Origin: an uncultured Gemmatimonadaceae bacterium
GTDB taxonomy: Bacteria > Gemmatimonadota > Gemmatimonadetes > Gemmatimonadales > Gemmatimonadaceae
Assembly (NCBI GenBank): GCA_963716745.1
Contig: OY970320.1
Location: forward strand, 1-64,000
Direction: 5' to 3'
Length of the DNA stretch: 64,000 nucleotides
Translations under genes and position numbers: made by a program
Notes under the pieces: model-generated
Told to the model about the DNA's origin: nothing
Database searches by the model: none
What the model saw: only the letters and a program-made list of their open reading frames with translations
Shown here: one piece after another, positions 34,223 through 53,714 of the stretch
How the letters are laid out: each line of letters opens with the position of its first letter
Numbering within the stretch: position 1 is the first letter of the stretch

Positions 34223-35226
34223 CCGAGTCCGCAGCGCCGGGGCTCACGCCCGGGCGCCGGGAGCGGTGGACGGCCGAGGCGGACAGCGATGTCCGCCTCG
34301 ATCTGCTTGTGGCCCGCCGGCTCGAGCTGTCGCGCACGCAGGCGGCGACGCTCATCGCGAACGGGTGCGTCACCGTGGCGGGGCGGCGTGAGAAGGCCAG
34401 TTACAAGGCGGAGCCGGGCGAGGAGATCGTGGTGGAGATCCCGTCGAGCGCCCGGCGCGAGGTGGGCGCGGAGAAACTCCCCATCGCCGTCGTGTTCGAG
34501 GACGACGATGTGCTCGTCGTGGACAAGGCCGCGGGCATGGTCGTGCACCCGGCACCCGGGAATTGGACGGGTACGCTGGTGAACGCGCTCAAGGGGCGCG
34601 GGAGTGCGCTCGCGGCGGCCGCTGGCGGCGAGCGCGAGGGGATCGTCCACCGCCTCGACAAGGACACCTCCGGGCTGCTTCTGGTGGCGAAAACGGACCG
34701 GGCGCACAAGGCGCTCGCCGGGGCGATGGCGCAGCGGAAGATCGTGCGGCGCTATGCCGCTCTGGCGTGGGGTCATCTCGAGACCGACCGGCTCACGGTG
34801 GACCGTCCGGTGGGGCGCAGTCCGCGAGACCGAAGGCTCATGGCAATCGTCAGTACAGGAAGGGCGGCGCGGACGGATTTCGTCCGACTCGCCCGGTTCG
34901 ACGCGGCCGATCTTTTGCGCGCGCACCTGCACACGGGGCGCACGCATCAGATCCGCGTCCACCTGGCGTCGATCGGCCATCCAGTGGCGGGTGATGACGT
35001 GTACGGCGGAGGCGGAGCGCGTCGATTGCTGGCGCTGCCGCCGAAGCGACACTTCCTCCACGCGGCCTGGCTGATCTTTCCGCATCCGGTGACCGGGGAG
35101 TCGATCGAGCTCCGCGCTCCGCTGCCCGAGGACCTCGTGCGCTCGCTCGCTGCGGCCGCGGGGACGGACACGCCACTCGACCCGGATCCGCTGGCCCAAT
35201 TTGGCTTCTACCGTCTCTCCGACTGA
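34219..35226 (+). CDS. rluD: RluA/RluD family pseudouridine synthase
   Basis: S4 domain, HRLDKDTSG, GRTHQIRVH. Confidence 0.93.
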   Translation: MTESAAPGLTPGRRERWTAEADSDVRLDLLVARRLELSRTQAATLIANGCVTVAGRREKASYKAEPGEEIVVEIPSSARREVGAEKLPIAVVFEDDDVLVVDKAAGMVVHPAPGNWTGTLVNALKGRGSALAAAAGGEREGIVHRLDKDTSGLLLVAKTDRAHKALAGAMAQRKIVRRYAALAWGHLETDRLTVDRPVGRSPRDRRLMAIVSTGRAARTDFVRLARFDAADLLRAHLHTGRTHQIRVHLASIGHPVAGDDVYGGGGARRLLALPPKRHFLHAAWLIFPHPVTGESIELRAPLPEDLVRSLAAAAGTDTPLDPDPLAQFGFYRLSD

Positions 35227-35647
35227 CATCTCTGCCCGCCGGCTGGTGGTCTTCCGGCTGGGGGATACGTCGTACGGGATCGACCTGGGTGCGGTGCGGG
35301 AGATCCTGCGCGCGCGCCCGGCCACGCGTCTGCCCGGCGCACCGAAGGCGGTGGTGGGGCTGATCAACGTGCGCGGTGCGATCGTGACGGTGATCGATCT
35401 CGGCGTGGCGCTCAGAGTGCGCACGGCGCCGGCAGGCGGCGCCGTGATGCTCATCGAGCACGGGCCGAAGCTGGTGGGCGCGATGGTGGACGAGGTGCTG
35501 GAAGTGCAGCGCGCGCCGGACGAAGCGCTGGAACCGGCGCCGCTCGACGTGCAGGCCGGAGGCGCGGTGCGCGCCCTCGGCACGCGCGAGGGCGGCGTCG
35601 TGATCGTGCTGGACATTCATGATCTGCTTTCGCACATGCTCGCTTAA
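35201..35647 (+). CDS. cheW: Chemotaxis coupling protein CheW
   Basis: VVFRLG...GLINVRGAIVTVIDL; TTG start overlaps rluD. Confidence 0.9.
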   Translation: MASTVSPTDISARRLVVFRLGDTSYGIDLGAVREILRARPATRLPGAPKAVVGLINVRGAIVTVIDLGVALRVRTAPAGGAVMLIEHGPKLVGAMVDEVLEVQRAPDEALEPAPLDVQAGGAVRALGTREGGVVIVLDIHDLLSHMLA

Positions 35648-35660
35648 CCGAGAGGTGACG

Positions 35661-36023
35661 GTGTCCCATACGGTATTGGTCTGCGACGACGCGATCTTCA
35701 TGCGCACGATGATCTCCGACATCCTCCAGCAATCCGGCTTCGATGTGATCGGCGAAGCGGAGACGGGAGTGGAGGCCGTGGCGCAGTATCGCAAACTCAA
35801 GCCGGACCTCGTGACGATGGACATCGTGATGCCCGACATGGGCGGCATCGATGCCGTGCGCGAGATCACGAAGTTCGATCCGAACGCCCGGATCCTCATG
35901 TGCAGCGCGATGGGGCAACAGGCGCTGGTGGTCGAGGCGATCCAGGCGGGGGCGAAGGATTTCGTGGTGAAGCCGTTCCAGCCGAGCCGGGTGCTGGAGG
36001 CGGTGCAGCGGGTCCTCGGCTGA
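35661..36023 (+). CDS. cheY: Single-domain response regulator CheY (Bacillus/Thermotoga-type)
   Basis: DDAIFMR, TMDIVMP, SAMGQQ, KPF. Confidence 0.93.
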   Translation: MSHTVLVCDDAIFMRTMISDILQQSGFDVIGEAETGVEAVAQYRKLKPDLVTMDIVMPDMGGIDAVREITKFDPNARILMCSAMGQQALVVEAIQAGAKDFVVKPFQPSRVLEAVQRVLG

Positions 36024-36040: not shown

Positions 36041-37903
36041 ATGGACCTCACGCGCTACGCCGATCTCTTCCTCACGGAGAGCCGCGAGCACGTCTCGGCG
36101 CTGAACCATCTCCTGCTCTCGCTGGAGCGCGCGCCGCGCGCCACGGAGCCGGTGGCGGGGATGTTCCGCGCGGTGCACACGGTGAAAGGCATGAGCGCGA
36201 CCATGGGCTACGGCGGCGTGACGGCGCTGGCGCACGAGATGGAGTCGTTGCTCGACCAGGTGCGGCAGAAAGCGCGCAAGGTGACGCCGGAGTTGATGGA
36301 CCTGCTCTTCAAGAGCGTTGACGCGCTCGAGAAGGCGATCGCGGCGGCGGTCGCGGGCACGAGTGATGATCCGGCGGCGCTCGTGATGGCGAAGACGCTG
36401 AAGGACTACGCCGAGGGGCGCCGCGCATTGGCGGGCGGCCGTCGCAAACCGCCCCCGAAGGCCGCGAAGTACAAGGGCAAGCGCGGCGTCGCGATCCGCG
36501 TGGTGCTCAATGACGGCATCGCGCTCAAGGGCGCGCGGGCGTTCCTCGTGGTGAAGCGCGCCGAGGACTTCGGGCGCGTCCTCGCGGTGGAACCGCCGAT
36601 CGACGCGCTGCAGCGCGAGGAGTTCGGCCGCGAGTTCATGATCCGTTTGGCGCCGAGCGTGGAGCCGTCGATCGCGGCGGAGGCGCTGCGCATGGCAGGC
36701 GATGTCGCGTCGGTGTCGATCGACGGCGCGGCGGTGAGCGACGCGCCGGAGAACGCGGCGCCGGGCGCGACGCGGCACGTGCGCATCGAGCTCACGCGTC
36801 TCGACGCGCTCATGAACCTCGTGGGCGAACTGGTGATCGCGCGCGGCCAACTGCAACAGCTCGCGGGCGTGACCGGCGATGCCGCGCTGGAGGAGACCGT
36901 CGCGCAGGGCGCGCGGCTCATCGGCGAGATGCAGGATGAGATCATGCGCTGCCGCATGGTGCCGGTGGCGCAGGTGTTCGACCGCTTCCCGCGCCTCGTG
37001 CGCGACGCGGCGCGCGCGTTGCACAAGGAGGTCTCGTTCACGGTGGAAGGGCAGGAGAGCGAACTGGACCGCTCGATGCTCGACGAGATCGGGGAACCGG
37101 TGATGCACTTGCTGCGCAATGCGGTGGACCACGGGATCGAGATGCCGGCCGAGCGCGAGGCCGCGGGCAAGCCGCGCGAAGGGGCGCTCAAGCTCTCGAT
37201 CTCGCGCGAACGCTCGGCGGTCACGATCCGCGTGAGCGACGACGGGCGCGGCATCGACCGCGCCCGCGTGCTGGCGAAGGCGCGCACGATGGGGCTGGTG
37301 CTGTCCACCGTGAAATCGCTGCCCGACGAAGAGCTGGTGCGGCTCATCTCGCGGCCGGGCTTCTCGACGGCCGAGCGCGTGACCGATCTGTCGGGGCGCG
37401 GCGTGGGGATCGATGTCGTGCTCACACGCGTGCGCGCGCTCGGCGGCTCGGTGGAGATCAGGACCGTGGCCGGGGAGGGCACGACCGTCACCGCGCGGCT
37501 GCCGCTCACGCTCGCGATCGTGCGCGCGATGCTCGCGCGCGTGGGTGAGGAGACGTACGCCGTGCCGATGACGCACGTGACCGAGACCGTGGAGCTCGAC
37601 GCCGCGGGCGTGCGCACCGTGCGCGGGCGCGAGGCGATCGTCCTGCGCGACGACGTGCTGCCGGTCGTGCGCCTCCGCAACCGGCTGTCGCTCGCGGCGT
37701 CGAGCGCGCCGATGCAGCAGGTGGTGATCGTGGAAGTGGGCGAACGCCACGCCGCGCTCGTGGTGGACGAACTCGCGGGACAGCAGGACATCGTGGTGAA
37801 GCAGTTCGACCCGGTGCGCGGCGGCATGCCGCTGTTCAGCGGCGCGACGATCCTGTCCGATGGGGCGCCGTCGCTGATCCTCGATGTCGGCAGCCTACTC
37901 TAG
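36041..37903 (+). CDS. cheA: Chemotaxis histidine kinase CheA (P1-P2-P3-P4-P5)
   Basis: HTVKGMS, LMNLVGELVI, HLLRNAVDHG, DDGRGID, SGRGVG and LPLTLAI motifs. Confidence 0.96.
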   Translation: MDLTRYADLFLTESREHVSALNHLLLSLERAPRATEPVAGMFRAVHTVKGMSATMGYGGVTALAHEMESLLDQVRQKARKVTPELMDLLFKSVDALEKAIAAAVAGTSDDPAALVMAKTLKDYAEGRRALAGGRRKPPPKAAKYKGKRGVAIRVVLNDGIALKGARAFLVVKRAEDFGRVLAVEPPIDALQREEFGREFMIRLAPSVEPSIAAEALRMAGDVASVSIDGAAVSDAPENAAPGATRHVRIELTRLDALMNLVGELVIARGQLQQLAGVTGDAALEETVAQGARLIGEMQDEIMRCRMVPVAQVFDRFPRLVRDAARALHKEVSFTVEGQESELDRSMLDEIGEPVMHLLRNAVDHGIEMPAEREAAGKPREGALKLSISRERSAVTIRVSDDGRGIDRARVLAKARTMGLVLSTVKSLPDEELVRLISRPGFSTAERVTDLSGRGVGIDVVLTRVRALGGSVEIRTVAGEGTTVTARLPLTLAIVRAMLARVGEETYAVPMTHVTETVELDAAGVRTVRGREAIVLRDDVLPVVRLRNRLSLAASSAPMQQVVIVEVGERHAALVVDELAGQQDIVVKQFDPVRGGMPLFSGATILSDGAPSLILDVGSLL

Positions 37904-37913: not shown

Positions 37914-38534
37914 ATGTCCGATCTTCTGTCGCTGACGAAAGTGGAACTCGACGCGCTCCGCGAGACGGCGAGCATCGGCGCCGGCCACGCCGCGACCGCG
38001 CTGTCGCTCATGACGAACAGCCGGATCATGATCTCGGTGCCGCACATCACGATCGCGGCGCTCGAGGACGTGCCGCAGCAGATCGCGGACGAGGAAGAGC
38101 CGATCGCGGCCGTCATGATGCAGATGCTCGGCGATCTCACGGGACGGTCCCTGCTCGTATTCCCGCGGGCCACGGCGCTGCGCCTCGCGCAGCTGATGCT
38201 GCGGCGGCCGCGCGACGGAACCGCCCCCTTCGCCGAGCTCGAGCAGAGCGCGCTCAAGGAGGCCGGCAATATCCTGAGCGGCGCGTATCTCAACGCGCTC
38301 AGCGATTTCCTGGGCCTCATGCTGCTGCCGTCGCCGCCGAGCCTCGTGGTGGACATGTCGGCCGCGGTGCTCACCACCGCGCACGCGCAGTTCGGCGCGG
38401 ACCGCGACATGGTGTTCGCGGTGGAGACGCAGTTCCTGTTCGAGGACCAGGCGGACCACCTGCGCGGCTTCTTCCTGCTGCTGCCCGACTTCGCGTCGTT
38501 GCGCGTGATCCTGCGCGCCATCCGGATCGCGTGA
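37914..38534 (+). CDS. cheC: CheY-P phosphatase CheC
   Basis: DALRETASIGAGHAATALS and SALKEAGNIL repeats. Confidence 0.92.
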   Translation: MSDLLSLTKVELDALRETASIGAGHAATALSLMTNSRIMISVPHITIAALEDVPQQIADEEEPIAAVMMQMLGDLTGRSLLVFPRATALRLAQLMLRRPRDGTAPFAELEQSALKEAGNILSGAYLNALSDFLGLMLLPSPPSLVVDMSAAVLTTAHAQFGADRDMVFAVETQFLFEDQADHLRGFFLLLPDFASLRVILRAIRIA

Positions 38535-41248
38535 ACAGCCCCTCGTCCCCCGTCTCGCAGCGCGACCGCGACATCCTGCGGTCGTTCGCGCGGCGCATCG
38601 ATCCATCGGATGCGGGGGCGCATAACAACCTCGGCGTGCTGTATTACAACAAGGGGATGTACGCCGAGGCGGTGTCGAGCTTCGAGCAGGCGCTGGAGCT
38701 GGATCCGAAGATGCAGGTCGCCCAGCGCAATCTCGAGGTCGCATACTTCAACACCGGCTACTACGACCGGCGCGTGGCCGAACTGCGAGATCGGCTGCGC
38801 TCGCATCCGCACGACCGCGACGCGCGCTGGGAGTTGGGACGCGCGTACGCCGCGCTCGGCGATGTGCCCGAAGCGGTGGCGGAGTTCACGGCGATCCTCG
38901 AGCATCATCCCGACGACGCCGGCGCCATCGTGCAGCTGGGTCTCGCGGAGAAGGCGAGCGGCGACCTCGAGCACGCGCAGCGCTGGTTCGAGCGCGCGCT
39001 GGCGCTCGAGCCGAAGAGCCCGCTCATGAGCTTCTACATCGGCGAAGTGCTGTACAACCGCGGGCTGAACGAGGAAGCGCTCGTCGCACTGCGCCGCTCG
39101 ATCGACATCAATCCCGACAACTCCGACGCGCACTATCTGCTCGGCTTCGTGCTGGGCGACCTCGGACGCCACGAGGAGGCGCGTGCCGCGACGAAGCGCG
39201 CGATCCAGCTCAATCCGTCGCTGTCGCGCGCGCAGGCGAATCTGTCGATCGACCGTTACAACGCCGCGAAGTACGAGGAGCTCGTGCCGCAGCGGCACGA
39301 GCGGCGGTCGTCGCAAATGGAGGTGGCCGCTGAGGGTGGCCTCGCGCACTACAACCTGGGCCTCGCGTTCCGGCAGAAGGGTTACTACGCGGAAGCGCTG
39401 CGCGAATACCGGCTCGCACTCGAGCGGGAGGAAGACCGCGCGCTGGTGCTCCAGGCGATGGCCGAGGTGCACCTGCTCAAGCGCGATCCCAAGTCGGCGA
39501 TCGAACTGTACGACCGCCTGCTCGAAGAGGAGAGTGAGAGCCCCAAGCTCTGGTGCGAGCGCGGGGTCGCGCTGCATCAGGAGGGTCGGCATCAGGAAGC
39601 CGCTGAGAGCTATCGTCGCGCGTTGTCGCTCGACGCGGCGTACGCCATCGCGCACAACAACCTGGGCGTCGCGGAATATCACGGCGGGAACACCGACGCG
39701 GCGATCGATGCCTTCCGCGCCGCGCTCGCGGCGCATCCGGGCTTCGTGAAGGCGTGGCTCAATCTCGCGCTGCTGCTCTATCAGGGAAAACGGCTCCAGC
39801 TCGCGCTCGAAGCGTACCGTCAGGGCCTCACCGTGGATCCGGAGCAGCCGGTCGCGTGGAACGGCATCGGTCTCGTGCTGGCGGAGCTCAAGAAGTACGA
39901 GGACGCGCGCAACGCGTTCGGGCGTGCGATCCACACGCGGCCGAACTATGCGGAGGCGCACTACAACCTGGGCTTCACGCTCTCGAACCTCGGCGATTTC
40001 GAAGGCGCGCTGCGCGCGACGCGGCGCGCGCTGGAGCTGGACCCGTTCTACGTGCGGCAGAAGTTCGAGCTCGCGATCGACCTCGAGTACGAGGATCCCG
40101 ATCTCTCGATCGCGCCCGCGCTCGGCAATGCGCAGCGCGTGGAGCAATCGGTGGAGACGTTCGCGTTCGACGCGGCGCGGCTCGATGCGCTCTTTACCGA
40201 GCTGAAGCCGCTCGCGCCGGCGCCGGTGGAGACGGCCGCCGTGCCGCTCGAGACGGCGTACGCCATGGCGGTGGAGTATCTGTCGAAGGGCATGCTCGAC
40301 CGCGCCGCGGCCGAAGTGAACCGCGCGCTGGTGCGCGGCGCGAACACGGGCGAGGGTCTGATCCTGCTGGGCGACATCTTCCTGCGGCAGGGGCTGCATG
40401 GCGAAGCGCTCGAGCGCTACAAGAATGCGCGGAGCGTGACGGCCAATGCGGCGCGCGCACTCGCCGGCGAGACGCGCGCGCTGCTGCTGCTGGGGCGCGC
40501 GGAGCAGGCGCGCGCGGTGGCCGAGGAACTGCTCATCGCGGATCCGGCGACAGTGGAATCGATCCTGCTCGTGGCGAGCGCGCGCGCCGATGCCGGCGAT
40601 CCCGCGGCGGCGCGCGAGCTGCTCAAGAACGCGCGCCGTCTCGCGCCCGCGCGCGCCGACGTCCTGCGGCAGTTCGGCGACGTGGCGCGCGCCGCGGGCG
40701 ATGTGGAGGGCGCGATCGCGGCATACAAGAACGCGCTCGACCTCGATCCCGACGTCGCAGTGGTGCACTACGAACTCGGGCGGTTGCTCGCCGAGAGAGA
40801 CGACGCCACGGGCGCCGAGACCGAGTTGCTCGCCGCGCTGGAGGCGGTGCCGACGTACGTGGAGGCCACCCTCGCGCTGGCGCAGGTGCGCCGCCGCTTC
40901 GGCCGCGCGAAGGACGCCGTGCCGCCGCTCGTGGACCTGCTGCGGCGCGATCCGTACAACGTGGAGGCGCTGCTCGCGCTCGCCGAGACGCTGCTCGAGC
41001 TGGACCGGCCGCGCGATGCGGCGATCTCGATCGAACGCGTACTGCGCTTCGACCCGCGGCACGTAGGCGCGCTCTTCTTCCACGGCGTGCTCCTCGCGGA
41101 CCAGCACCGCTACCGCGAGGCGATCGGGGAATGGGAGCGCGTGGTGGAGCTGGAGCCCGACGGCGAGTTCGCCAAGAACGCACGTCGCGAGTCGCGCACC
41201 GCGTCCGACCTGCTGCGGATCTTCCGCCACCGGCAGGAGGCGAGCTGA
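38531..41248 (+). CDS. Large cytoplasmic TPR protein (905 aa)
   Basis: Many AHNNLG/AHYNLG-type TPR repeats; no signal peptide. Confidence 0.88.
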   Translation: MNSPSSPVSQRDRDILRSFARRIDPSDAGAHNNLGVLYYNKGMYAEAVSSFEQALELDPKMQVAQRNLEVAYFNTGYYDRRVAELRDRLRSHPHDRDARWELGRAYAALGDVPEAVAEFTAILEHHPDDAGAIVQLGLAEKASGDLEHAQRWFERALALEPKSPLMSFYIGEVLYNRGLNEEALVALRRSIDINPDNSDAHYLLGFVLGDLGRHEEARAATKRAIQLNPSLSRAQANLSIDRYNAAKYEELVPQRHERRSSQMEVAAEGGLAHYNLGLAFRQKGYYAEALREYRLALEREEDRALVLQAMAEVHLLKRDPKSAIELYDRLLEEESESPKLWCERGVALHQEGRHQEAAESYRRALSLDAAYAIAHNNLGVAEYHGGNTDAAIDAFRAALAAHPGFVKAWLNLALLLYQGKRLQLALEAYRQGLTVDPEQPVAWNGIGLVLAELKKYEDARNAFGRAIHTRPNYAEAHYNLGFTLSNLGDFEGALRATRRALELDPFYVRQKFELAIDLEYEDPDLSIAPALGNAQRVEQSVETFAFDAARLDALFTELKPLAPAPVETAAVPLETAYAMAVEYLSKGMLDRAAAEVNRALVRGANTGEGLILLGDIFLRQGLHGEALERYKNARSVTANAARALAGETRALLLLGRAEQARAVAEELLIADPATVESILLVASARADAGDPAAARELLKNARRLAPARADVLRQFGDVARAAGDVEGAIAAYKNALDLDPDVAVVHYELGRLLAERDDATGAETELLAALEAVPTYVEATLALAQVRRRFGRAKDAVPPLVDLLRRDPYNVEALLALAETLLELDRPRDAAISIERVLRFDPRHVGALFFHGVLLADQHRYREAIGEWERVVELEPDGEFAKNARRESRTASDLLRIFRHRQEAS

Positions 41249-42675: not shown

Positions 42676-43514
42676 CGAGATCCGCCGCCTCAGCGACGAA
42701 CTCGCGCGCGACCCGTCGAGCCTCGTGTTCCTCCAGCTCGGCGAGGCGCTGCGGAAGGGCGGGCAGCTCGAGCTCGCGATGAAGGTGGCCATGCGCGGCC
42801 TCGAGCGGCACGCGCATAATGCCGACGCGCACGATCTCCTCGCGCGCATCTGCGTCGATCGCAATGAGCTCGAGCAGGCGTTCGACGAGTGGGACATGGT
42901 GCTGCGTCTCGCGCCGAATCACGTGGGTGCGCGCAAGGGGATGGGCTACGTGCTGTACAAGCAAGGCCGGCTCGAGGAGGCCGAGGATCATCTCGAGCGC
43001 CGCCGCATCGGGCGACCGGACCGATGCGTCGATCTCCACCGCGCTCCGCATGGTGCGCCGGCTGCTGCGCTACGCGCGCCTCGCCGGCAACGGCGCGAGC
43101 GATCCGGGCCCGGCCGAACTCGAAGCGGCACAGCGGCGCGTGGAGGAAGAGGCGCACTTCCTATTCGCCGACATCCTCGGCGACAGCGAGCAGACGGCAC
43201 TGCTGCTGAATTCCGATGGCCTCGTGACCGCGGGCGCGTATCTCTCGAGCGACGGTGAGGATGTCGCGCAGGAAGTGGGTGCGCAGCTCTCGGGCGTGCG
43301 CGACGACGCGCAGCGCACCGTGCGCCACCTCGATCTGGGGGAGTGGAAGCTCGTGCTGTACGAGACCGACGTCGCCGTGGTCGCGATCGCGCCGGCGCTC
43401 GACGACTCCATGGTGCTCGTGGCCGCGTCGCACGTGATGCCGCTCGGATTCGTGCGCCGCGTGCTCGACCGCTGCGTGCGGCGCGCCACGATGTGGCTCT
43501 CGGAGGTCGGATGA
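42668..43514 (+). CDS. TPR plus roadblock/LC7 fusion protein (apparent frameshift ~43000)
   Basis: TPRs in 42668..43000; roadblock pattern LLLNSDGL...LDLGEWKLVLYE...PLGFVRR in the next frame. Confidence 0.75.
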
Positions 43515-43858
43515 GCTCGCCCTTCGAGGATCTCCTCGCGACGCTCATCCGCCAGCGCGGCGTGCTCGGCTGCCTCGTGGTGGGCGAGCGCGACGGCATC
43601 ATCGTGGACTCCAACGTCCAAGTAGGCGTGCCGGAGAGCGTCGTCGCGGCGCTGGCGGCCGCGCTCTTCCGCCGCGCGCGCCTCTCGTCGCAGGCGGCGG
43701 GGCTCGGGCAAGTGACCTTCCTGCAGCTCGAGGCCACCGACGGCCACGTGTGCGTGGTCGGGCGCGAAGGGCTGGTGATCGTGACGCTCGCCGAGCCGCG
43801 CGCGCACATCGGGCTCATCCGCGGCGCGATGCTGCAGAGCGTGGAGGCACTCACGTGA
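43511..43858 (+). CDS. Roadblock/LC7 protein (MglC-like)
   Basis: GVLGCLVVGERDGIIV...GLGQVTFLQLE...HIGLIR. Confidence 0.82.
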   Translation: MSSPFEDLLATLIRQRGVLGCLVVGERDGIIVDSNVQVGVPESVVAALAAALFRRARLSSQAAGLGQVTFLQLEATDGHVCVVGREGLVIVTLAEPRAHIGLIRGAMLQSVEALT

Positions 43859-44986: not shown

Positions 44987-46914
44987 CGGCCGAACTGGAT
45001 CCGCGCTACCGCTTCGAGAACTACATCGTCGGATCGGCCAATCGTCTCGCGGTCTCCGCCGCGAAGGCGGTGGCCCAGGCCCCGGGCACCGCGTACAACC
45101 CGCTGTTCATCTACAGCAGCTCGGGGCTGGGCAAGACGCACCTCATGATCGCCGTCGGCCACATGGCGATCCAACTGCAGCCCAACCTGCGGTCGCTCTA
45201 CATCACGCTCGACGAGTTCGTGGAGGAACTCACCGCCGCCGTGTCGTCGGGCACGATCGAGAATTACAAGCAGCGCTTCCAGGACGTGGACATCCTGCTG
45301 CTGGACGACGTCCAGTTCCTCGCCGGCCGGCGCGAGACGCAGAGCGAGATGCTGCGGCTGTTCAACGCGCTGCAGCGCGCGGGCAAGCAGATCATCCTCA
45401 CGAGCGACCGCCCACCGAACGAGATCGCCGACCTCGACGAGCGCCTCATCTCGCGCTTCGCCGGCGGACTCGTGGTGGACGTCGGCCTGCCCGATTACGA
45501 GACGCGCGTGGCCATCCTGCGCGCGAAGTGCGAGGAGCGGAAGGAGACGTTCGAGACCGGCGTGCTGGACGAGGTCGCGCGCATGAACTTCTCGAACGTG
45601 CGCGAGCTGCAGGGCGCGCTCAACCGCCTCATCGCGTGCCAGTCGCTCGGCGAGGCCGAGGTCACGGTGCGGAACGTGCGCGAGTTGCTCGGTGAGAAGC
45701 CCGACGCCGGCCCCGTGATGGCGCAGGCGCCCGCGCGGGGCGAGGAATTCGCGAGCTTCCTCAGCGACCTGAGCGATGTGGTGGCGCAGCACATCGACAC
45801 GTGGCGCGTGCGCGTCGTGGAAGCGATGACCTACTGGCATCAGCTCGGTTACGGCACCACGCTGCTCGAGCGCACGCTCGAACAGTCGGAGGAGCCGGAT
45901 GTCGACGCGCTGTTGCAGGGCTACGAGGCGAACATCGCGCGGCTCCGCGCGCTCGAGCAAGAAGCGATGCGCTACGATCCGGTGCTCGCCGAGTCGGAGG
46001 TGTTCAAGGATCCCGAGCGCGTGGGCGAGGCGGAATTGCTCGTGGCGCGGCAGATGGGCGGCGCGGAACCGCCGCCCGGCCCCGATCCCGAGCTGACGCG
46101 TGCCACGTTCGAGGTCGGGCCATCGAACCAACTCGCGGTCCACGCGGCCGACACGGTCGTGCTCGAGCCGGGCAGAAAGTACAATCCGCTCTTCCTGTAC
46201 GGCCCGCCGGGCGTGGGCGTCACGCACCTGCTGAACGCGCTCGCGAACGAGATGATCACGGCGGGCGGCGGCAAGCGGCCCGTCGCGTGCGTGAACGCGC
46301 AGCAGTTCATCGACGAACTGATCGTCGCGCTGCAGGAAGGCACGATCGAGCGGTGGCGGGCGCGCTACCGCCTCGTGGACGCGCTCCTGATCGACGATGT
46401 GCAGCTCTGCGCGACGGGCGAGCGCACGCAGGAAGAACTCTTTCACGTGTTCAACAGCTTGTACTCCGCCGGCAAGCAGGTGGTGCTCGGTGCCGACCGC
46501 GCCCCGCGCCAGATCGAGCGTCTCGAGGACCGGCTGCGCTCGCGCTTCGAGGGCGGACTCGTGGTGGAGATCCAGCCGCCCGACCATTCGCTGCGCGAGA
46601 AGCTGTACGCGCGCATGTTCGCCGCCGCGGGACAGCACGCCGATCGCGTGCTCGTGGATTTCCTGTCGGCGCGCGCCGTGGCGAACGTCGCGGAACTCGC
46701 GGCCACGGTCGACCGGCTCGTGAAGGCGGCGGGCGTGGTGGGCGTTCCGCTCAATGCATCGTTCGCGCGCAAGGAGCTCGAAGGCGGCGGCATCGCGCCC
46801 GCGCCGGCCCGCGCGATCGACGGGCGCGAGGCCGACAGCTTCTTCCTCGACGAGGAGAAGGTGGTCTGGGACTGGCCTGACGTGGCTGGCCGCGCGATCG
46901 AGGACCTCCGGTAA
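44983..46914 (+). CDS. Tandem DnaA/Hda-family AAA+ protein lacking DnaA domains I and IV
   Basis: Two YNPLF.Y...THL / DDVQ / RL.SRF.GGL modules separated by a helical linker; no C-terminal DnaA-box HTH. Confidence 0.88.
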
Positions 46915-48541
46915 TGGCGATCAAGGGCAGTCTCAAGGAGGCGTCGCTCCCCGACGTCCTGCAGCTCCTCGCCATGGGCCAGAAGACCGGCTGCCTGTCG
47001 GTCGCCGACCGCAACAACTTCGGCTACATCTACTTCGACCGCGGCCGCATCTCGTACGCGTCGATCGTGAACCGGCGCGACCGGCTGGGCGACCTGCTCG
47101 TGAAGCACGGCGTCGTGACGCAGCTCGAGCTCGACGTCGCGATCGAAGCGCAGAGCAAAGCGCACCGCGGCAAGCGCCTCGGCGAGATCCTCATCGAGCA
47201 GCAGATCCTCACGCGCGAGGAGCTGCACCGCTACATCCGCGTGCAGATCGAGGAAGCCGTGTACTACCTCTTCACTTGGACGCAGGGGACGTTCAGCTTC
47301 GAGGCGGACATGCGCCCCGAGGAGCACGACGTCCTCGTGTCGATCAATCCCGAATCGCTGCTGCTCGAAGGCGCGCGGCGCGTGGACGAGTGGAGCCTGA
47401 TCGAGAAGAAGGTGCCGAGCTTCGACATCATCTTCGAGGTGGACCGGACGCGGCTGGCGCAGAGCGAAGCGCAGCTCACGCCGGCACAGGAGCAGCTGAT
47501 CCCGCTGATCGACGGGCGGCGCGACGTGACGACGCTCATCGATGCGTCGGGCATCGGCGAGTTCGAGGTAGGGAAGGCGCTCTACGCCCTCGCGACCGCC
47601 GGCTATCTGCACCGCGCCGGCAAATCTCGCCCCGTGGACGACGGCGTGCGCGAGGCGCGCGTGGAGGAGCACCGCAATCTTGGCGTCGCGTTCTACAAGA
47701 CGGCGATGTTCGAGGAGGCCACGCGCGAGTTCCGGCGCGTGGTGGAGCTGAATGAGACCGACGTGCCGGCGCGCTTCTATCCTGGGGCTCGTCGCGATGC
47801 GGGAAGGGAAGTGGAGTGAGGCGGTGCTCACGCTCCGCGAGGCGGGCGCGCAGCCCAACGTGCGCCCGGCGATTTTCCACAATCTCGCCTACGCGCTCGA
47901 GCGCATGGGCCACTACGACGACGCGCGCGAGGCGCTGCAGGAGGCGATCCAGCGCGGCGGCCAGGAAGATCCGCGCATCCGCACGTCGCTCGGCGTGCTC
48001 GCGCTCAAGAGCGGCGACGTGGATGAGGCCGATGCGCTCGCTCACGGCGTCGCGTCTCCTCTGGGCCAAGCGGTCGCCGTCGCCGGCGTGGTTCCACTAC
48101 GCCGCGCTCGCGGCGGCGCTCACCGGCGAACTCGACCGCGCGCTCGAGATCGTGGCCGAAGGCGTGGAGCTGCACCCGCACGCCGCCGTGCTCTACAACA
48201 CGCTCGCCGCGGTGCACGAGCGCCGCGGCGACATGGCCGCCGCCGCGCGGGCTGCGGAAAGCGGGCTGCACGAGGACGGCTCGATCCCGCAGCTCTTCAA
48301 GAATCTCGGCGACTGCCTCTACCGCGCGTCGCGCTACGACGAGGCGCTCGAGGCGTTCCAGCGGGCGGTGAAGCTCGATCCCGCGCTGGGCGACGATGTG
48401 TACTTCAAGCTCGGCAACATCCGGTTCAAGTGGCAGGAGAAGGAGCAGGCGCTCGCGTACTGGGAGCGCGCGCTGGCCCTGAATCCCGAGAACGAGGTGA
48501 TCCGCACGAATCTCGATCTCGTGCGGACGATGCCCGAATGA
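46914..48541 (+). CDS. DUF4388 protein with MshEN-like motifs and C-terminal TPRs (apparent frameshifts ~47780 and ~48040)
   Basis: [35 protein letters not shown]; TPRs continue across three frames. Confidence 0.83.
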
Positions 48542-49360
48542 TCGCCGGCGCTCCGATGGCCGACGCCGATTTCGCGGCGCTCACGGCGAAGATCACGCGT
48601 GAGCGCGGCTTCGGCTGCGCGAGCTATAAGGAGAAGTGTCTGCGCCGCCGGATCGCGGTGCGCATGCGCGCGCGCGGCGTCCACACCTATCGCGACTACG
48701 CGCGCGTGCTCGACAGCGACGGCGCGGAGTACGAACGTCTTCTGGACGCGCTCACGATCAACGTGACGCGCTTCTTCCGGAATCCGGAGGCGTGGGAGGC
48801 GCTGGACGCGTTGGTGCTCGGACCCCTCATGACCGCGGGGCGGACGCCGCTGCGGATCTGGAGCGCCGGGTGCGCCTCGGGCGAGGAGCCGTACACGCTC
48901 GCGATCCTGCTGCAACGCCGCGCCACGCTGCTCGGCAAGAAGGCGCGGGCCGTTCGAGATCGTGGCGACCGACATCGATGCCGCGAGCCTCGAAGCCGCC
49001 GGGCGCGCCGTGTACGAGTCGTCGACGCTCGTGGACATGCCCGCCGATCTGCGCTCCGCGTACGTGACGGGCGACGGTCCCTTCACGATCGGTGCCGCGG
49101 TGCGCGCATCCGTGCGCCTGCGGCGCCACGATCTGCTGGGCGACGCGCCTCCCGGCGGTCCGTTCGATCTGATCGTCTGCCGCAACGTCACGATCTATTT
49201 CGACCGCCGCTCGCAGGAGGCGCTGCTCGAGCAATTCCACGGCGCACTCGCGCCCCTGGGCGTGCTCTTCCAGGGCAAGGTGGAGACGCTCACGGGCGCG
49301 GCGCGCGCGCGATTCGAGATCGTGGATGCGCGTGAACGCATCTTCCGCCGCGCCTCGTGA
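48538..49360 (+). CDS. cheR: Chemotaxis methyltransferase CheR (apparent frameshift ~48945)
   Basis: TINVTRFFR, IWSAGCASGEE, ATDID and CRNVTIYF motifs. Confidence 0.92.
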
Positions 49361-49839
49361 AGGAGATCCGCGTGCACGTCGCCGAGGCCGCCGTCGCTCA
49401 GGGGGACGCGATCATCGCCAGCGTGGGGCTGGGGAGCTGCGTCGCCATCGTGCTGCACGACGCCACCGCGAAGGTGGGCGGAGTCGCGCACGTGCTCCTG
49501 CCGAGCGACTCCATGGCGCGCGACCGCAGCAACCGCGCGAAATTCCCCTCGAGCGCGGTGCCGCTGCTGCTGGAGCAGATGCGCGCGCTCGGCGCGCTCG
49601 ACCGCCGGATCTCGGCGCGGCTCGTGGGCGGCGCGAGCATGTTCACCTCGCTCCTCTCGTCGGGCGGCATGCAGATCGGCGAGCGCAATCTGCTCGCGAG
49701 CCGCAAGGCGCTCGCGCTCGCGCGCATCCCGGTGATCGGCGAGGATGCCGGCGGCGGGCACGGCCGCAGCGTGTACCTCCACACCGGCGACGGGCGCCTG
49801 GAAGTGCGCTCGATGGCGAGAGGCAATGTCCTCCTCTAG
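49357..49839 (+). CDS. cheD: Chemoreceptor glutamine deamidase CheD
   Basis: GLGSCV, AHVLLP, GGASMF, IGERN and EDAGG motifs. Confidence 0.94.
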   Translation: MKEIRVHVAEAAVAQGDAIIASVGLGSCVAIVLHDATAKVGGVAHVLLPSDSMARDRSNRAKFPSSAVPLLLEQMRALGALDRRISARLVGGASMFTSLLSSGGMQIGERNLLASRKALALARIPVIGEDAGGGHGRSVYLHTGDGRLEVRSMARGNVLL

Positions 49840-50950
49840 TTCGCTCCGCACCGTCCTCGTCGTGGACGACAGCGCGTTCATGCGCAAGATCGTCGTGGAT
49901 CTCATCGACGGGTCGGGCGAATTCCGCGTGATCGGCACCGCGCGCCATGGCGCCGACGCGCTGAAGAAGGTGCGCGCGCTGGAACCCGACATCGTGACGA
50001 TGGACATCGAGATGCCGGAGCTCGATGGGCTCGCCGCGCTCGAGCGGATCATGCGCGATTCGCCGCGCCCGGTCGTGATGCTCAGTGGCGCCGCCACCGG
50101 CGGCGCACACGATCCCGTGCTCCGCGCGCTGGAGCTCGGCGCCGTGGACTTCCTGCGCAAGCCGTCGGGTCCGATCAGTCTCGACCTCGCCACGGTGCGC
50201 GAGCCGTTGCTCGAAGCGCTCCGCGCCGCGGCCGAAGTGAATCTCCGCGGCATGACCGCGCTCTCCGAGACGGTGGCCGGCGCCTCCGCGGCGAAGCATC
50301 CCGCGGCGGAGGGCGCGGCGTCGTGCGTCGTCGCGATCGCCAGCTCCACGGGAGGCCCGCGCGCGCTCGCCGAGGTCATCCCCGGCTTGCCGCGCACGCT
50401 CGACGCCGCGGTCGTGGTCGTGCAGCACATGCCCTCCGGATTCACGCGGAGTCTGGCCGAGCGATTGAACGCGCACAGCCGCTTGCGGGTGAGCGAGGCA
50501 CAGGACGGACAGCTGCTGCGGCGCGGTCATGTGTACGTCGCGCCGGGCGGCCGCCATCTGCGTCTGCGCGCGGGCACGGGTGGCGTACTACTCGCGCTCG
50601 ACGACACGCCGCCCGTGTGGGGCGTGCGCCCCGCCGCGGATCCGCTCTTCCGCTCGGCGGCGGAGTGCCTCGGCAACGCGGTCATCGGGATCGTGCTCAC
50701 CGGCATGGGCCGCGATGGCGCCGAAGGGTTGCGCGCGATCCGCGACGCCGGCGGCACCGGCATCGCGCAGGACCGCGCGACGTCGATCATCTTCGGGATG
50801 CCGCAGGCGGCGGCAATGGCGGGCGGCGCGACGCGTGTCCTGCCGCTCACGGAGATCGCCGCGGCCGTCGCCGAGATCGTCGCGCTGCGGCGCTCCGACA
50901 TCACCGCGCCGCGCGCCCGGCGCACGGTGGCCCGCAAGGAGGCGCCATGA
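49826..50950 (+). CDS. cheB: Chemotaxis methylesterase CheB (REC plus methylesterase)
   Basis: REC domain; SSTGG, QHMP and LTGMGRDG catalytic motifs. Confidence 0.95.
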   Translation: MSSSSSLRTVLVVDDSAFMRKIVVDLIDGSGEFRVIGTARHGADALKKVRALEPDIVTMDIEMPELDGLAALERIMRDSPRPVVMLSGAATGGAHDPVLRALELGAVDFLRKPSGPISLDLATVREPLLEALRAAAEVNLRGMTALSETVAGASAAKHPAAEGAASCVVAIASSTGGPRALAEVIPGLPRTLDAAVVVVQHMPSGFTRSLAERLNAHSRLRVSEAQDGQLLRRGHVYVAPGGRHLRLRAGTGGVLLALDDTPPVWGVRPAADPLFRSAAECLGNAVIGIVLTGMGRDGAEGLRAIRDAGGTGIAQDRATSIIFGMPQAAAMAGGATRVLPLTEIAAAVAEIVALRRSDITAPRARRTVARKEAP

Positions 50951-51414
50951 GTCTCATCGACGTTACCCATGGCGCTCCGCTCACGGGACTCGCGGAATTC
51001 CTGCTGTTCCGCGTCGGCAAGGAGTACTTCGCCATGCCGCTCGCGAACGCGGAGGAGGCGGTAGAGCGTCTCGAACGTCACTCGCTCCCCGGCATGCCGC
51101 GCGACATGGCGGGCGTCGCACAGTACCGGGGCATGCGGCTCCCGGTGTACGGCGCGGAGCAAGTGCTCGAGGTGGCCCGCGATGGAGGCGACGAGGATGT
51201 CACGCTCGTCGTGCGCGGGAAGGGTGGCAAGGTGGGCGTCATCGTGGATGATGTGGAGGATGTGATCATCGTGGATCTCTCGAGCGTACGCGCCGTGCCC
51301 GGCGCCACCATTGGCGAACCCGTGCTCTCGGGCGTGATCCCGCGTGGCACCGAACTCGTGGCGGTGTGCGATCCCGACGCGCTCGTGCGCGCTTGCCTCG
51401 GAGCCCGCGCATGA
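50947..51414 (+). CDS. cheW: CheW-like protein (divergent)
   Basis: FLLFRVGKEYFA...GVAQYRG...VGVIVDDVEDV. Confidence 0.8.
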   Translation: MSLIDVTHGAPLTGLAEFLLFRVGKEYFAMPLANAEEAVERLERHSLPGMPRDMAGVAQYRGMRLPVYGAEQVLEVARDGGDEDVTLVVRGKGGKVGVIVDDVEDVIIVDLSSVRAVPGATIGEPVLSGVIPRGTELVAVCDPDALVRACLGARA

Positions 51415-51887
51415 GCGCCGTGATGCAGCAGGTGGTGACGTTCCGCCTCGGCGACGACCGGTTCGCCGGCAATGTCGCGGCCGTCGAGCGCGTGCTGCGC
51501 TGGGTGAAGCCCACCACGCTGCCCGGACTGCCCGCGTGGCTCGACGGCGTGATCGAGCATCAGGGACGCGTGGTACCGGTGGTGGACCTCCGCACGCGCT
51601 TCGGCCTCGAGCGCCGCGAGCCGAAGCCCGAGACGCGCATCATCCTCTTCGCATCGGGCGACGAATGGATCGGCGCGGTGGTGGATGCCGTGCTCGAGGT
51701 CGTGGCCATTCCCGCCGACCGCGTGGCCGAACCGCCCAAGGTGTTCCGCGGGCTGCGCGCCGAGTACCTGCGCGGTCTCGTGCGGCAGGACGACGGCCTC
51801 ATCATCTTCCTCGACGTGCCGCACCTGCTCAATGCGAGCGAGCGCGTCGAACTCAAGAAGGCGGCCAAGGCGGCGATAGATGGCTGA
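51411..51887 (+). CDS. cheW: CheW protein
   Basis: VVTFRLG...GRVVPVVDLR...VVDAVLEV. Confidence 0.88.
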   Translation: MSAVMQQVVTFRLGDDRFAGNVAAVERVLRWVKPTTLPGLPAWLDGVIEHQGRVVPVVDLRTRFGLERREPKPETRIILFASGDEWIGAVVDAVLEVVAIPADRVAEPPKVFRGLRAEYLRGLVRQDDGLIIFLDVPHLLNASERVELKKAAKAAIDG

Positions 51888-52740
51888 CGAAGCGAGCGGG
51901 TTCCGTCAGCAGTACGATGCGATCGCGGCGCGCCTCGAGGACGCGGGTGCGCCGGATGCGCGCGATGCGATCAAGGGCGAGATCATCGCGCTGTTCAAGC
52001 AGCTGGAACAGGAGATCGCGCAGATGTCGGTGTTGCGCGACAATGTGAAGAAGCTCGTCGAGCGGTGGAAGCAGCTGCAGCAGTCATCGGCGCCGTCGAA
52101 CGCGCCCGAATTCGCGAGCGAACGGCCGGTAGTCGCCGACCACATCGGTGCGTCCACGTTCGTGGAGAAAGGCTGGAGCCTCATCTCGCTCGGCGATCAC
52201 GAAGGCGCCGAGCGCGCACTGCTCAAGGCACTCGAACTGTCGCCGAACGATCCGCAGACCGAGTCGCTGCTCGGCTGGGCCCAAATGCTGCAGGAGAAAT
52301 ACGACGAAGCGCTGCTGAACTTCCAGAAGGTGCTCATGCGCCAGCCGACGAACTCGCTGGCGCGCATCAACCTCGGCTACATCTGTCTCAAGAAGAAGAT
52401 CTTCGGCGAGGCGATCGAGCATCTGTCCAAGGCGATCCGCCTCGACAACGATCGCAAGGCCACGCTGTACGCGCACTTCTACCTCGGCCTCACCTATGCC
52501 GAGCGCGAGATGTACGAGGACGCGCAGACCTTCTTCCGCAAGACGCTGTCGATCGGGCCGAATCTGATCGAAGCGTACTACGAACTCGGCCGTGCGCTCT
52601 GGTTCGAAGGAAAGCAGGACGATGCGAAGCAGGCGTGGCGCGACGGACTCGCCGCCAACAAGTTCAATCCATGGGGGAAGCGCTGCGGCGAGATGCTGAA
52701 GCACGTCGAGGACGGGGGCGTGCCCTCGCGATCGTCCTAG
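51880..52740 (+). CDS. Coiled-coil plus TPR protein
   Basis: N-terminal heptad helix followed by about 5 TPRs. Confidence 0.82.
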   Translation: MADEASGFRQQYDAIAARLEDAGAPDARDAIKGEIIALFKQLEQEIAQMSVLRDNVKKLVERWKQLQQSSAPSNAPEFASERPVVADHIGASTFVEKGWSLISLGDHEGAERALLKALELSPNDPQTESLLGWAQMLQEKYDEALLNFQKVLMRQPTNSLARINLGYICLKKKIFGEAIEHLSKAIRLDNDRKATLYAHFYLGLTYAEREMYEDAQTFFRKTLSIGPNLIEAYYELGRALWFEGKQDDAKQAWRDGLAANKFNPWGKRCGEMLKHVEDGGVPSRSS

Positions 52741-53714
52741 CGCTCCTGCTCGTGGCGGCGCCCGCGCGCGCGGCGCGCGCGCAAGACGCGAAGATCACGC
52801 GCCTCACGGCGGGACGATTCACCATCATGGCGGGCGATGCGGATCTTCCGCTCGCGCACACCCTGCTCGACAGCGCGGCGGCGCGCGATACGTTCCCCGG
52901 GCTCCCGCGTCCACGCGACGCCGTGCTCATCGCCATCGCCGGCGGTTCGCGCCAATTCCGGGAATGGGCGGGCGCCGGCGCGCCGGAGTGGGGCGCGGCC
53001 GTCGCCATCCCCGGGGAGCGGCGCATCGTGATGCAGGGCAGCCGCGCGGGATCGGACGCCGGCGAACCGGTGTCGGTGCTGCGGCACGAACTCGCGCATC
53101 TCGCGTTGCACGAGGCGATGGGCGATCTGCCGCCGCGCTGGTTCGACGAGGGATACGCGAGCTGGTGCGCGCGCGAGTGGGCGCGCGACGAGGTGCTCGC
53201 CGCGAGCGTCGGCCTCGTCCTGGGCGGCGTGCCCGCGCTCGACTCACTCGACGATGGGTTCACCGGCGGGGCGGTGCGCGCGGGCACCGCGTACGCGCTG
53301 TCGTATCGCGCCGTGGCGGACCTCGCGCAGCTCGACAGCGTGCGCGGGCTGTCGCTCTTCCTGGAACGGTGGCGCGCGACGGGCTCGATGGACCGCGCGA
53401 TGCGCGAGGCGTACGGACTCACGAAATCGTCGTTCGAGCAATCCTGGCGCGCGCGCACGATGCGCCGCTACGGTGCGCTGGCGATCCTCGCGAATCTCAC
53501 GGCGCTCACCGCGATCCTCGGCGTAGTGCTCATCCCGCTGTATGCGGCGCGGCGCCGGCGCGACCGCCGCCGTCTCGACGCGATGCGGGCGGCTGAGGAG
53601 GCGGCCGAGCGCGCGGCGCGGCAGAGTGCGATCGAGGCCCTGCTCGCGAGCGCCCGACCGGACCGTGCGCCACCCCGCGATGGCGAAGCGCCGCCCGGGT
53701 CGAACGAGCCCTAA
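52719..53714 (+). CDS. Peptidase MA-like metallopeptidase with signal peptide and C-terminal TM (start codon unclear)
   Basis: HELAH plus PRWFDEGYA gluzincin motif; hydrophobic N-terminus and C-terminal TM. Confidence 0.75.
   Translation, partial: RALAIVLALLLVAAPARAARAQDAKITRLTAGRFTIMAGDADLPLAHTLLDSAAARDTFPGLPRPRDAVLIAIAGGSRQFREWAGAGAPEWGAAVAIPGERRIVMQGSRAGSDAGEPVSVLRHELAHLALHEAMGDLPPRWFDEGYASWCAREWARDEVLAASVGLVLGGVPALDSLDDGFTGGAVRAGTAYALSYRAVADLAQLDSVRGLSLFLERWRATGSMDRAMREAYGLTKSSFEQSWRARTMRRYGALAILANLTALTAILGVVLIPLYAARRRRDRRRLDAMRAAEEAAERAARQSAIEALLASARPDRAPPRDGEAPPGSNEP

Follow-up and report, generated by a model that had tools for sequence, protein, structure and literature searches.

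A conserved Gemmatimonadota operon combining a chemosensory pathway, MglA/MglB and a two-headed DnaA-like ATPase: a candidate polarity signaling system

The genome of an uncultured soil Gemmatimonadaceae bacterium (GCA_963716745.1) consists of a single contig (OY970320.1) of 3.29 Mb, rated 89.8% complete, and we analyzed its first 64 kb, referred to here as the window. Genes were called using a frame-specific plot of GC content at third codon positions (GC3) together with Pfam scans of the window. Positions 35201-53714 on the plus strand carry 19 co-directional genes, each backed by a Pfam match, in the order cheW1-cheY-cheA-cheC-TPR905-PATAN1-TPR/Roadblock-Roadblock-mglB-mglA-DnaA-like-PATAN2-cheR-cheD-cheB-cheW2-cheW3-TPR-peptidase, where TPR stands for tetratricopeptide repeat. 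This cluster had been singled out from the sequence alone as a module that wires a chemosensory (che) phosphorelay to a Ras-like switch and a DnaA-derived ATPase, and the number, order and common direction of the genes given in that original prediction are borne out by the Pfam matches. Public homologues of the window proteins are labeled Gemmatimonadaceae or Gemmatimonadales.

The genes of the cluster are closely packed. The start codon overlaps the preceding stop codon at 12 of the 18 junctions (as ATGA, GTGA, TGATG, TAATG or ATGnnTGA), including each of the boundaries between modules, namely cheC/TPR905, mglA/DnaA-like and PATAN2-TPR/cheR. At four of the remaining six the genes are 7-17 nt apart, in some cases with a purine run resembling a Shine-Dalgarno sequence, and at two the start is unclear. 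Neither promoter-like nor terminator-like sites inside the cluster exceed their frequency in shuffled sequence, with 6 terminator-like sites observed against 5.3 ± 2.5 in the shuffles. As judged from such sequence features, there is no sign that the che and non-che blocks are separately transcribed. The correct mglB frame is that given in Table 1, and an alternative open reading frame (ORF) at 43878-44576 was dismissed because it has no Pfam match.

Table 1. Genes and other features of the cluster and its immediate borders.
Feature	Coordinates	Strand	Evidence and remarks
rluD, pseudouridine synthase	34141..35226	+	PseudoU_synth_2 + S4; 3' end overlaps cheW1 start
cheW1	35201..35647	+	CheW E 6.5e-30
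cheY, single REC domain	35655..36023	+	Response_reg E 1.5e-30; GTG start 7 nt past cheW1 stop
cheA, P1 Hpt-P2-P3-P4-P5, without receiver	36041..37903	+	Hpt, P2, H-kinase_dim, HATPase_c, CheW
cheC, CheY-P phosphatase family	37914..38534	+	CheC E 6e-18
TPR905, 905-aa all-TPR protein	38531..41248	+	TPR_2 E 4e-91, many other TPR models; GTGA overlap with cheC stop
PATAN1: DUF4388 (PATAN)-Pro-rich linker-TPR	41248..42675	+	DUF4388 E 9e-32
TPR-Roadblock fusion, frame broken near 42994	42668..43514	+	TPR in one frame, Robl_LC7 in next
Roadblock/LC7 protein 2	43511..43858	+	Robl_LC7 E 2.5e-5; ATGA overlap
mglB-like Roadblock	43855..44370	+	Robl_LC7 E 3e-6; M. xanthus MglB 6h5b_B E 1e-6
mglA, Group-1 type small GTPase	44378..44986	+	M. 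xanthus MglA 5ymx E 4e-71, ~63% identity
Two-headed DnaA-like AAA+ ATPase, 643 aa	44983..46914	+	Bac_DnaA twice, E 3e-109
PATAN2: DUF4388 (PATAN) then TPRs, frame broken near 47781 and 48040	46914..48541	+	DUF4388 E 1e-39
cheR, frame broken near 48950	48538..49360	+	CheR_N and CheR 1-57 in one frame, CheR 68-193 in next
cheD	49357..49839	+	CheD E 7e-26
cheB, REC + methylesterase, exact start unclear	49850..50950	+	CheB_methylest E 2e-65; Response_reg; NF001965 391.9 bits vs cut-off 293
cheW2, divergent	50947..51414	+	CheW E 9e-21; ATGA overlap
cheW3	51411..51887	+	CheW E 2.6e-33
TPR protein, 286 aa	51880..52740	+	TPR_2 E 2e-27
Predicted exported gluzincin-type metallopeptidase, start approximate	52700..53714	+	Peptidase_MA_2 31.1 bits, cut-off 32.4
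tRNA-Val(TAC)	53969..54042	+	Rfam tRNA 74.7 bits; ARAGORN; marks cluster 3' boundary

The gene order was followed across Gemmatimonadota in two independent samples. The first comprised 20 kb around the ATPase gene from 20 genomes that cover six families and include no unpublished one, and was searched by tblastn with 23 gene pieces of the window. The full set, running colinearly from cheW1 to the peptidase, was found in 13 of these 20 loci, which belong to families f1, f2, f3 and f5 (L001-L005, L009-L014, L015 minus the last genes, and L020). The second sample was drawn from GenBank species genomes by scanning for the motif in the C-terminal tail of the ATPase; almost all matches listed are Gemmatimonadota by title, and 28 listed loci had full 20-kb flanks. 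As far as the flanks reach, the arrangement cheA...mglA-DnaA-like...PepMA was present in 27 of the 28, the order seen in the window being the commonest. Gene by gene, PATAN2-TPR, the 286-aa TPR protein (TPR4) and the peptidase were found in 28 of the listed loci, cheA, cheC, TPR905, PATAN1, mglA, cheD and cheB in 27, mglB in 26 and cheR in 24. The possibility that the order is not kept among relatives, raised with the original prediction, is therefore answered by 13 of 20 and 27 of 28 loci. Since the same order recurs in so many independent loci, the arrangement is far beyond chance.

The ATPase itself was used as a query against 401 genomes of the phylum, including the unpublished G157, G182, G057 and G097, with a strong match defined as a full-length match at E ≤ 1e-100 and counted by hand. 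Strong matches were found in 71 of the 93 other genomes of its own family (f1), in most genomes of f2 and f3, in 5 of 7 of f4 and in 21 of 70 of f7, but in none of f6 and f9 and in none of f10-f12, which belong to other classes. The true DnaA was matched in every one of the 401 genomes at E values of about 1e-55 to 1e-70. The ESM Atlas clusters in the two-headed length class are all dominated by Gemmatimonadota.

Several loci of the first sample hold trimmed forms of the cluster. In genus g9 (L006, L007) mglA is kept without cheR, the Roadblock genes or mglB, a form that corresponds to the entry 'PATAN>MglA>-PATAN>' for GAU_1409 of Gemmatimonas aurantiaca in Table S2 of PMC4316618. L008 has no matches for mglA, cheR or cheB. 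L016 (f4) retains TPR905, PATAN1, TPR-Roadblock, Roadblock, mglB, the ATPase, PATAN2-TPR and the peptidase, and lacks mglA and the che genes. In f7 (L017-L019) the ATPase, PATAN2-TPR and the peptidase stand alone after rluD. These three genes form the invariant core of the cluster, and because the core stands alone in f7, the ATPase can work without the chemosensory and GTPase parts.

Such trimmed forms bear on whether the cluster is one system or three unrelated units (the che genes, mglBA, and the core of ATPase, PATAN and peptidase) that are inherited side by side and not integrated. The solitary core of f7, the mglA-less form of f4, the g9 forms without cheR, mglB or Roadblock genes and the presence of a second mglB-mglA pair elsewhere in the genome are all compatible with separate units. 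However, che genes flank the non-che block on both sides, as originally noted, an arrangement shared by 13 of 20 loci and by 27 of 28; every boundary between modules has overlapping start and stop codons, and terminator-like sites are not in excess. We consider side-by-side inheritance without integration distinctly improbable.

Three cluster genes appear broken in the window by four frame changes near 42994, 47781, 48040 and 48950, and ileS upstream is also split, with its synthetase and anticodon domains in one frame and the C-terminal DUF5915 in another. In the nearest relative fetched (L001) all three cluster genes are uninterrupted ORFs, PATAN2-TPR being a single frame of 552 codons. Logan contigs with near-identical DNA from four soil-metagenome runs were aligned to positions 32000-49999. 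At five sites these short-read contigs have one base fewer, the extra base being always in the window assembly: at 32441 in ileS (left out in 3 runs), at 42994 in the TPR-Roadblock gene (1 run), at 47781 (1 run) and 48040 (3 runs) in PATAN2-TPR, and at 48950 in cheR (1 run). The contig at 48950, 411 nt long and from run X2, shows the 1 gap and 0 other differences from the window. Because near-identical contigs lack the extra base at each site, the breaks are assembly insertions and not gene decay; in the natural population these genes are intact. A pseudogene reading of cheR and the two scaffold genes is ruled out by these independent contigs, and ileS carries the same type of error. Five insertions lie in the 18 kb examined, where the indel error rate is put at about one per 4-5 kb, and such 1-nt insertions probably explain the completeness of only 89.8% for a single-contig genome; other apparent pseudogenes of this genome are to be read with these errors in mind. 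In the same-genus genome G425 (C5:64130-66056) the ATPase gene is matched in two pieces that overlap near residue 240 and lie in different frames, which is probably another assembly frameshift, or else a real split.

The che genes encode a complete chemosensory pathway. The only match to H-kinase_dim in the genome is the cluster CheA, and tblastn found every che gene in a single copy. CheA contains all five domains including P2, and the only receivers in the cluster are those of CheY and CheB. Three CheW proteins and one CheY are accompanied by the adaptation enzymes CheR and CheB, with cheR complete once its 1-nt assembly insertion is allowed for. Three genes for methyl-accepting chemotaxis proteins (MCPs) were detected with MCPsignal, all outside the cluster, two with HAMP and one with GAF. 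The best NCBIfam models are haloarchaeal for CheA and CheY (CheY_Halo, 132.7 bits) and of Thermotoga type for CheD, and that for CheC is CheC_Thtogales (164.7 bits), all below the equivalog cut-offs. The Bacillus/Thermotoga flavor originally assigned to this set fits these best models, none of which is matched at equivalog level. As to an F1-type class in the scheme of Wuichet and Zhulin, the pointers are indirect, namely these models and the presence of CheC, CheD and a P2 domain.

Complete CheA/W/Y/C/D/R/B sets of this kind serve flagella in Bacillus and Thermotoga, and we considered whether the cluster is an ordinary flagellar chemotaxis locus. No FHIPEP match, and hence no FlhA, was found in the single-contig 3.29-Mb genome, and none was found in G425. 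FlhA is above the cut-off in 33 of 101 family genomes and not in 68, set against the 71 of 93, in the other sample, with the two-headed ATPase. Five flagellated carriers of the cluster were compared. Four possess an additional CheA (G363 and G010 with two matches each, G067 with two and a weak third, G350 with three), located 20-50 kb from flhA in three of them; the fifth, G029, has FlhA and the cluster CheA only. Of five carriers lacking FlhA, the cluster CheA is the sole one in four, and one (G219) has two. With the sole CheA of this genome inside the cluster, no FlhA, and a separate CheA in most flagellated carriers, an ordinary flagellar locus is very improbable indeed. The type IV pilus (T4P) genes pilC, pilT and pilB lie together at 1.505-1.509 Mb, where PilB has an MshEN domain.

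The small GTPase of the cluster resembles MglA of Myxococcus xanthus, with ~63% identity. Alignment with 5ymx_A showed both a G3 motif of TVPGQ and, next to the G2 threonine, an arginine. According to PMC4316618, Group-1 MglA is defined by TVPGQ together with an intrinsic arginine next to the G2 threonine, and the cluster protein is by these sequence criteria a Group-1 MglA. The mglB gene ends 7 nt 5' of the mglA start. The same source records Group-1 MglA in Gemmatimonadetes and places some mglA genes near PATAN genes; its supplementary file 3 has no CheA, CheY or AAA entries. A second mglB-mglA pair is located at 2.98 Mb (G000:C1:2981811-2982985), with an MglA that is 49% identical to the cluster copy and contains an insertion. 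It parallels the separate 'MglB>MglA>' pair that Table S2 of PMC4316618 gives for G. aurantiaca besides the GAU_1409 neighborhood. In M. xanthus, MglA and the TPR protein SgmX stimulate T4P formation (PMC7519303). By analogy, TPR905 is a candidate SgmX-like effector or scaffold of MglA.

The ATPase is composed of two DnaA-like heads in one chain. Head 1 (residues 1-235) is followed by a helical linker (~254-359), head 2 (~370-590) and a conserved Trp-rich C-terminal tail. Residues 5-229 of head 1 match domain III of Bacillus subtilis DnaA (8bv3) at E 7e-62. Head 1 shares 44% identity with domain III of the DnaA encoded by this genome, whereas for head 2 the identity is 38% with DnaA and 36% with head 1. 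DnaA domains I, II and IV are absent, as Bac_DnaA (twice) and generic AAA models are the only ones matched, neither Bac_DnaA_C nor DnaA_N is matched at E ≤ 0.01, and structure alignments end with domain III. Head 1 has the AAA+ motifs of DnaA domain III, and without domains I and IV the protein does not qualify as a DnaA initiator; the true DnaA is encoded elsewhere, at 1.92 Mb. The AlphaFold2 (AF2) model (predicted local distance difference test, pLDDT, 83.7; predicted template modeling score, pTM, 0.46) contains two DnaA-like AAA+ modules, a helical linker and a helical tail, the relative placement of the modeled heads being uncertain given this pTM. Foldseek aligned it with 8bv3, domain III of DnaA, at a target-normalised TM of 0.95. 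The whole protein scores 516.7 bits against TIGR00362, the DnaA equivalog with a cut-off of 343.9. Its 161.8 bits against TIGR03420 (Hda) are under the cut-off of 194.8, and being two-headed it is not an Hda. Public metagenome annotations label the ATPase 'chromosomal replication initiator protein DnaA', and this label is misleading.

Conservation of the nucleotide motifs differs between the heads. We compared 117 sequences, the window protein and 116 homologues of 600-700 aa among 120 listed. In head 1 the Walker A Lys, the Walker B Asp-Asp, Sensor I, the Box VII Arg and the Sensor II Arg are each present in 117/117. In head 2 the Box VII Arg is likewise found in 117/117 and Walker B is kept, whereas Sensor I is variable, the Sensor II Arg occurs in only 28/117 and the Walker A Lys in 103/117, with Val in its place in 12. 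Loss of the head 2 lysine as a trait of the whole family was ruled out, the 12 being the window protein and its closest relatives. From its sequence, this pattern is that of one predicted catalytic head and one regulatory or structural head. The match in L020 (f5; G306:C118 10498-11556) extends over query residues 2-354, and since only the first head and linker are matched there, one-headed forms exist.

Both PATAN proteins carry TPRs and no Response_reg, and neither has the PatA-type PATAN-receiver architecture. Each contains two copies of an MshE-type cyclic di-GMP (c-di-GMP) motif in a helical insertion of the PATAN domain. This tandem 24-residue motif, RLGxx..G..L...L..Q, is defined for MshE-type c-di-GMP receptors in PMC5013675. 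Residues 57-111 of PATAN2 cover positions 1-53 of the 53 of NF053729 at 48.8 bits, above the cut-off of 38, while the degenerate motif of PATAN1 reaches 32.5 bits and stays below it. R57, G59, L62 and L93 of PATAN2 are invariant in 21 sequences, and little or no variation is seen at the key Arg, Gly, Leu and Gln residues. The PATAN2 motif stretch also matches the N-terminus of the genome's own PilB (BLASTP E 4e-5). PATAN2 therefore probably adds a c-di-GMP input, as far as binding can be predicted from this motif. In Synechocystis, the PATAN domain is described as binding PilB1 at its N-terminal region and PilC at its N-terminal domain, and alone it reverses phototaxis (10.1101/2021.06.11.447907).

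The last gene encodes a protein with a signal-peptide-like N-terminus, a C-terminal hydrophobic membrane helix and an Arg-rich tail. Its H116, E117 and H120 (HExxH) and a downstream E137 are invariant in 22 sequences. Fold comparison of its AF2 model (pLDDT 88.5) ranks peptidase domains of M9 collagenases first (E 2e-6, TMq 0.45-0.49), and M30 and M1 gluzincin domains are also near, which places it in clan MA. It is present in 28 of 28 listed loci and in all trimmed forms.

The cluster occupies a stable genomic slot. Upstream are ileS, a dksA/traR-type zinc-finger gene, lspA and rluD; downstream are a promoter-like site (53734-53762), the tRNA-Val(TAC) gene, a TPR gene, rsmH and ftsI, the latter two of the division and cell wall (dcw) cluster. 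RluD is immediately 5' in 20 of 20 loci (L001-L020), trimmed forms included, and RsmH is 3' in 25 of the 28 loci of the second sample. The slot between lspA-rluD (33196-35226) and tRNA-Val/TPR/rsmH-ftsI (54013-59299) is kept across loci L001-L020 and L025-L104, and in L091 it holds a form devoid of che and mgl genes. The longest ORF call for the downstream TPR gene (54013-55911) overlaps the tRNA-Val gene, and its true start is for this reason further 3'. A frame of 1157 codons on the minus strand (29589-33062), antisense to ileS, is without a Pfam match and represents not a gene but a shadow ORF typical of high-GC DNA.

This location and the ancestry of the ATPase raise the alternative that the system is coupled to the cell cycle or division, with the ATPase joining or acting on the true DnaA in the manner of Hda, or on the divisome, and the pathway gating replication or division. 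The box VII arginine finger serves DnaA-DnaA and Hda-DnaA contacts, and head 1, with its 44% identity to the resident domain III, keeps it. The score of the whole ATPase above the DnaA equivalog cut-off, the position directly 5' of tRNA-Val, the TPR gene and rsmH/ftsI with RsmH next in 25 of 28 listed loci, and the persistence of the core in f7 without che or mgl genes also fit this alternative. On the other hand, DnaA domains I, II and IV are missing from the ATPase and none of the cluster genes encodes a DNA-binding domain, the true DnaA lies at a distance of 1.9 Mb, and between the cluster and the dcw genes stand a tRNA gene and a promoter-like site. Synteny kept within one class may reflect inheritance only, and all other components (MglA/B, PATAN, TPR) have precedents in motility and polarity. 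We regard cell-cycle coupling as unlikely. The specific form in which the ATPase is a signaling copy of the initiator that still talks to DnaA or division, such that chemoreceptors, c-di-GMP and MglA gate replication or division, is quite unlikely; if true, a chemosensory pathway would be wired to the cell cycle and encoded directly upstream of the dcw cluster. Of the polarity or cell-cycle role originally suggested, the cell-cycle half is weakly supported.

We propose instead, with about even confidence, that the operon links a non-flagellar chemosensory pathway to a front-rear polarity module that steers T4P and, through them, most probably surface motility. By homology, the three MCPs would signal through the three CheW proteins and the sole CheA to the single-domain CheY; CheC would reset CheY-P, and CheR, CheB and CheD would adapt the receptors. 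The Frz system of M. xanthus acts on MglA/MglB via a response regulator (PMC3441718). By analogy with Frz (PMC3441718, PMC10329633), CheY-P may act on the set of MglA, MglB and Roadblock proteins and so fix or invert the pole occupied by MglA-GTP. MglA-GTP, the SgmX-like TPR905 and the two PATAN-TPR proteins might then engage the PilB/PilC motor, a step suggested by the SgmX precedent and the contacts of the Synechocystis PATAN domain with PilB1 and PilC. PATAN2, in which the motif is present, would contribute c-di-GMP as a second input. In what is the least supported step, the ATPase, in which head 1 is catalytically intact and head 2 is degenerate but retains its arginine finger, could serve as an ATP-dependent switch or assembly platform for the PATAN, TPR and Roadblock proteins. 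Roadblock proteins may in turn regulate the ATPase, because they adjoin it in L016 where mglA is absent and because regulation of NTPases is a role predicted for the Roadblock superfamily (Koonin and Aravind 2000, cited by PMC4316618). The metallopeptidase, membrane-anchored and periplasmic, may link the complex with the envelope.

Several observations weigh against steering of T4P through this operon. No pilus gene lies inside or beside the cluster, and PilT-family genes were found in 19 of 19 family genomes without it as well as in 19 of 19 with it; since PilT is in all 38 genomes, the phyletic pattern gives the T4P link no support. The core of ATPase, PATAN2-TPR and peptidase persists in the three f7 loci without any che or mglA gene. 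Because the flagellated G029, which is 100% complete, has the cluster CheA only, the che part may also feed flagella in some lineages. Finally, the genome under study is 89.8% complete, with the indel error rate given above.

The uninformative PilT pattern also leaves room for the same signaling logic with another output, namely a non-pilus surface machine, secretion or exopolysaccharide, for example gliding or adhesin export, of which the peptidase would be part. MglA-GTP of M. xanthus also stimulates assembly of the gliding machinery (PMC9481161), and the peptidase, with its invariant HExxH...E and membrane anchor, accompanies 28 of 28 listed loci and all trimmed forms. However, the cluster contains no gliding or secretion genes, with none searched for elsewhere, and the PATAN precedent points at PilB/PilC. 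An output other than T4P is in our view rather unlikely.

The proposed chemosensory control of MglA can be compared with several known systems. The Frz system features the CheA-CheY fusion FrzE and the dual-receiver FrzZ. The cluster resembles the M. xanthus Frz-MglA/MglB(/MglC/RomR-RomX/RomY)-SgmX system in having a che-type pathway above a Group-1 MglA, an MglB Roadblock GTPase-activating protein, further Roadblocks and a large TPR candidate effector, and in its occurrence in a pilus-bearing, surface-living bacterium. It differs in that its CheA has no fused receiver and is accordingly not of the Frz type, there is no FrzZ-like dual receiver and no RomR, and CheC and CheD are present. The two PATAN-TPR proteins, the two-headed ATPase and the metallopeptidase have no counterpart in Frz/Mgl. 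In M. xanthus mglA is far from its partner genes (PMC4316618), whereas here all are in one operon.

The ATPase shares with DnaA domain III and Hda the initiator-clade AAA+ fold, with all nucleotide motifs kept in head 1, and with Hda the lack of a DnaA-box binding domain. Unlike either, it has two heads per chain, a helical linker of roughly 100 residues and a Trp-rich tail, and its gene lies between mglA and PATAN. The output of the Pil-Chp system of Pseudomonas aeruginosa runs via the response regulators PilG/PilH and via FimX/FimL, without MglA, PATAN or a DnaA-like ATPase. Pil-Chp is nevertheless similar as a chemosensory system dedicated to polarising T4P (PMC10519157). The cyanobacterial Tax/Pix pathways with PatA-type (PATAN-REC) regulators also combine a che-type pathway with a PATAN output domain, and the PATAN domain of Synechocystis, which binds PilB1 and PilC, governs the direction of movement driven by pili (10.1101/2021.06.11.447907). 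In the cluster, by contrast, PATAN is fused to TPRs instead of a receiver, and MglA/MglB and the ATPase are added; because no receiver domain is fused, phosphorylation cannot act directly on PATAN. The actinobacterial conservon CvnA-D likewise unites an MglA-family GTPase, a Roadblock protein and a sensor histidine kinase in one operon (PMC4316618), but with a Group-2 MglA, a membrane histidine kinase instead of CheA/MCP, and no PATAN, TPR or AAA+ protein.

Overall, the order of the genes is kept among relatives, the blocks show no sign of separate transcription and the locus is not an ordinary flagellar one. These results support the reading of the cluster as one module of a che pathway, a Ras-like switch and a DnaA-derived ATPase. 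No description of this operon, or of a DnaA-derived ATPase in a polarity or chemosensory context, was found in the literature searched, whose scope did not extend to subscription journals, in agreement with the original remark that no characterization was known. The system is best filed as a chemosensory pathway on an MglA polarity switch with new hard-wired components.

In M. xanthus, the links between chemosensing and MglA are scattered over the genome and still debated. Here, one conserved operon of a widespread soil phylum offers a complete candidate parts list leading from chemosensing to a polarity switch. It includes components absent from the model system, namely a PATAN adaptor with an intact c-di-GMP motif and an ATPase recruited from a replication initiator. 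The literature searched yielded no case of a DnaA domain III protein acting outside replication. As cultured Gemmatimonas strains carry a version of the cluster, genetics, localization and biochemistry are feasible.

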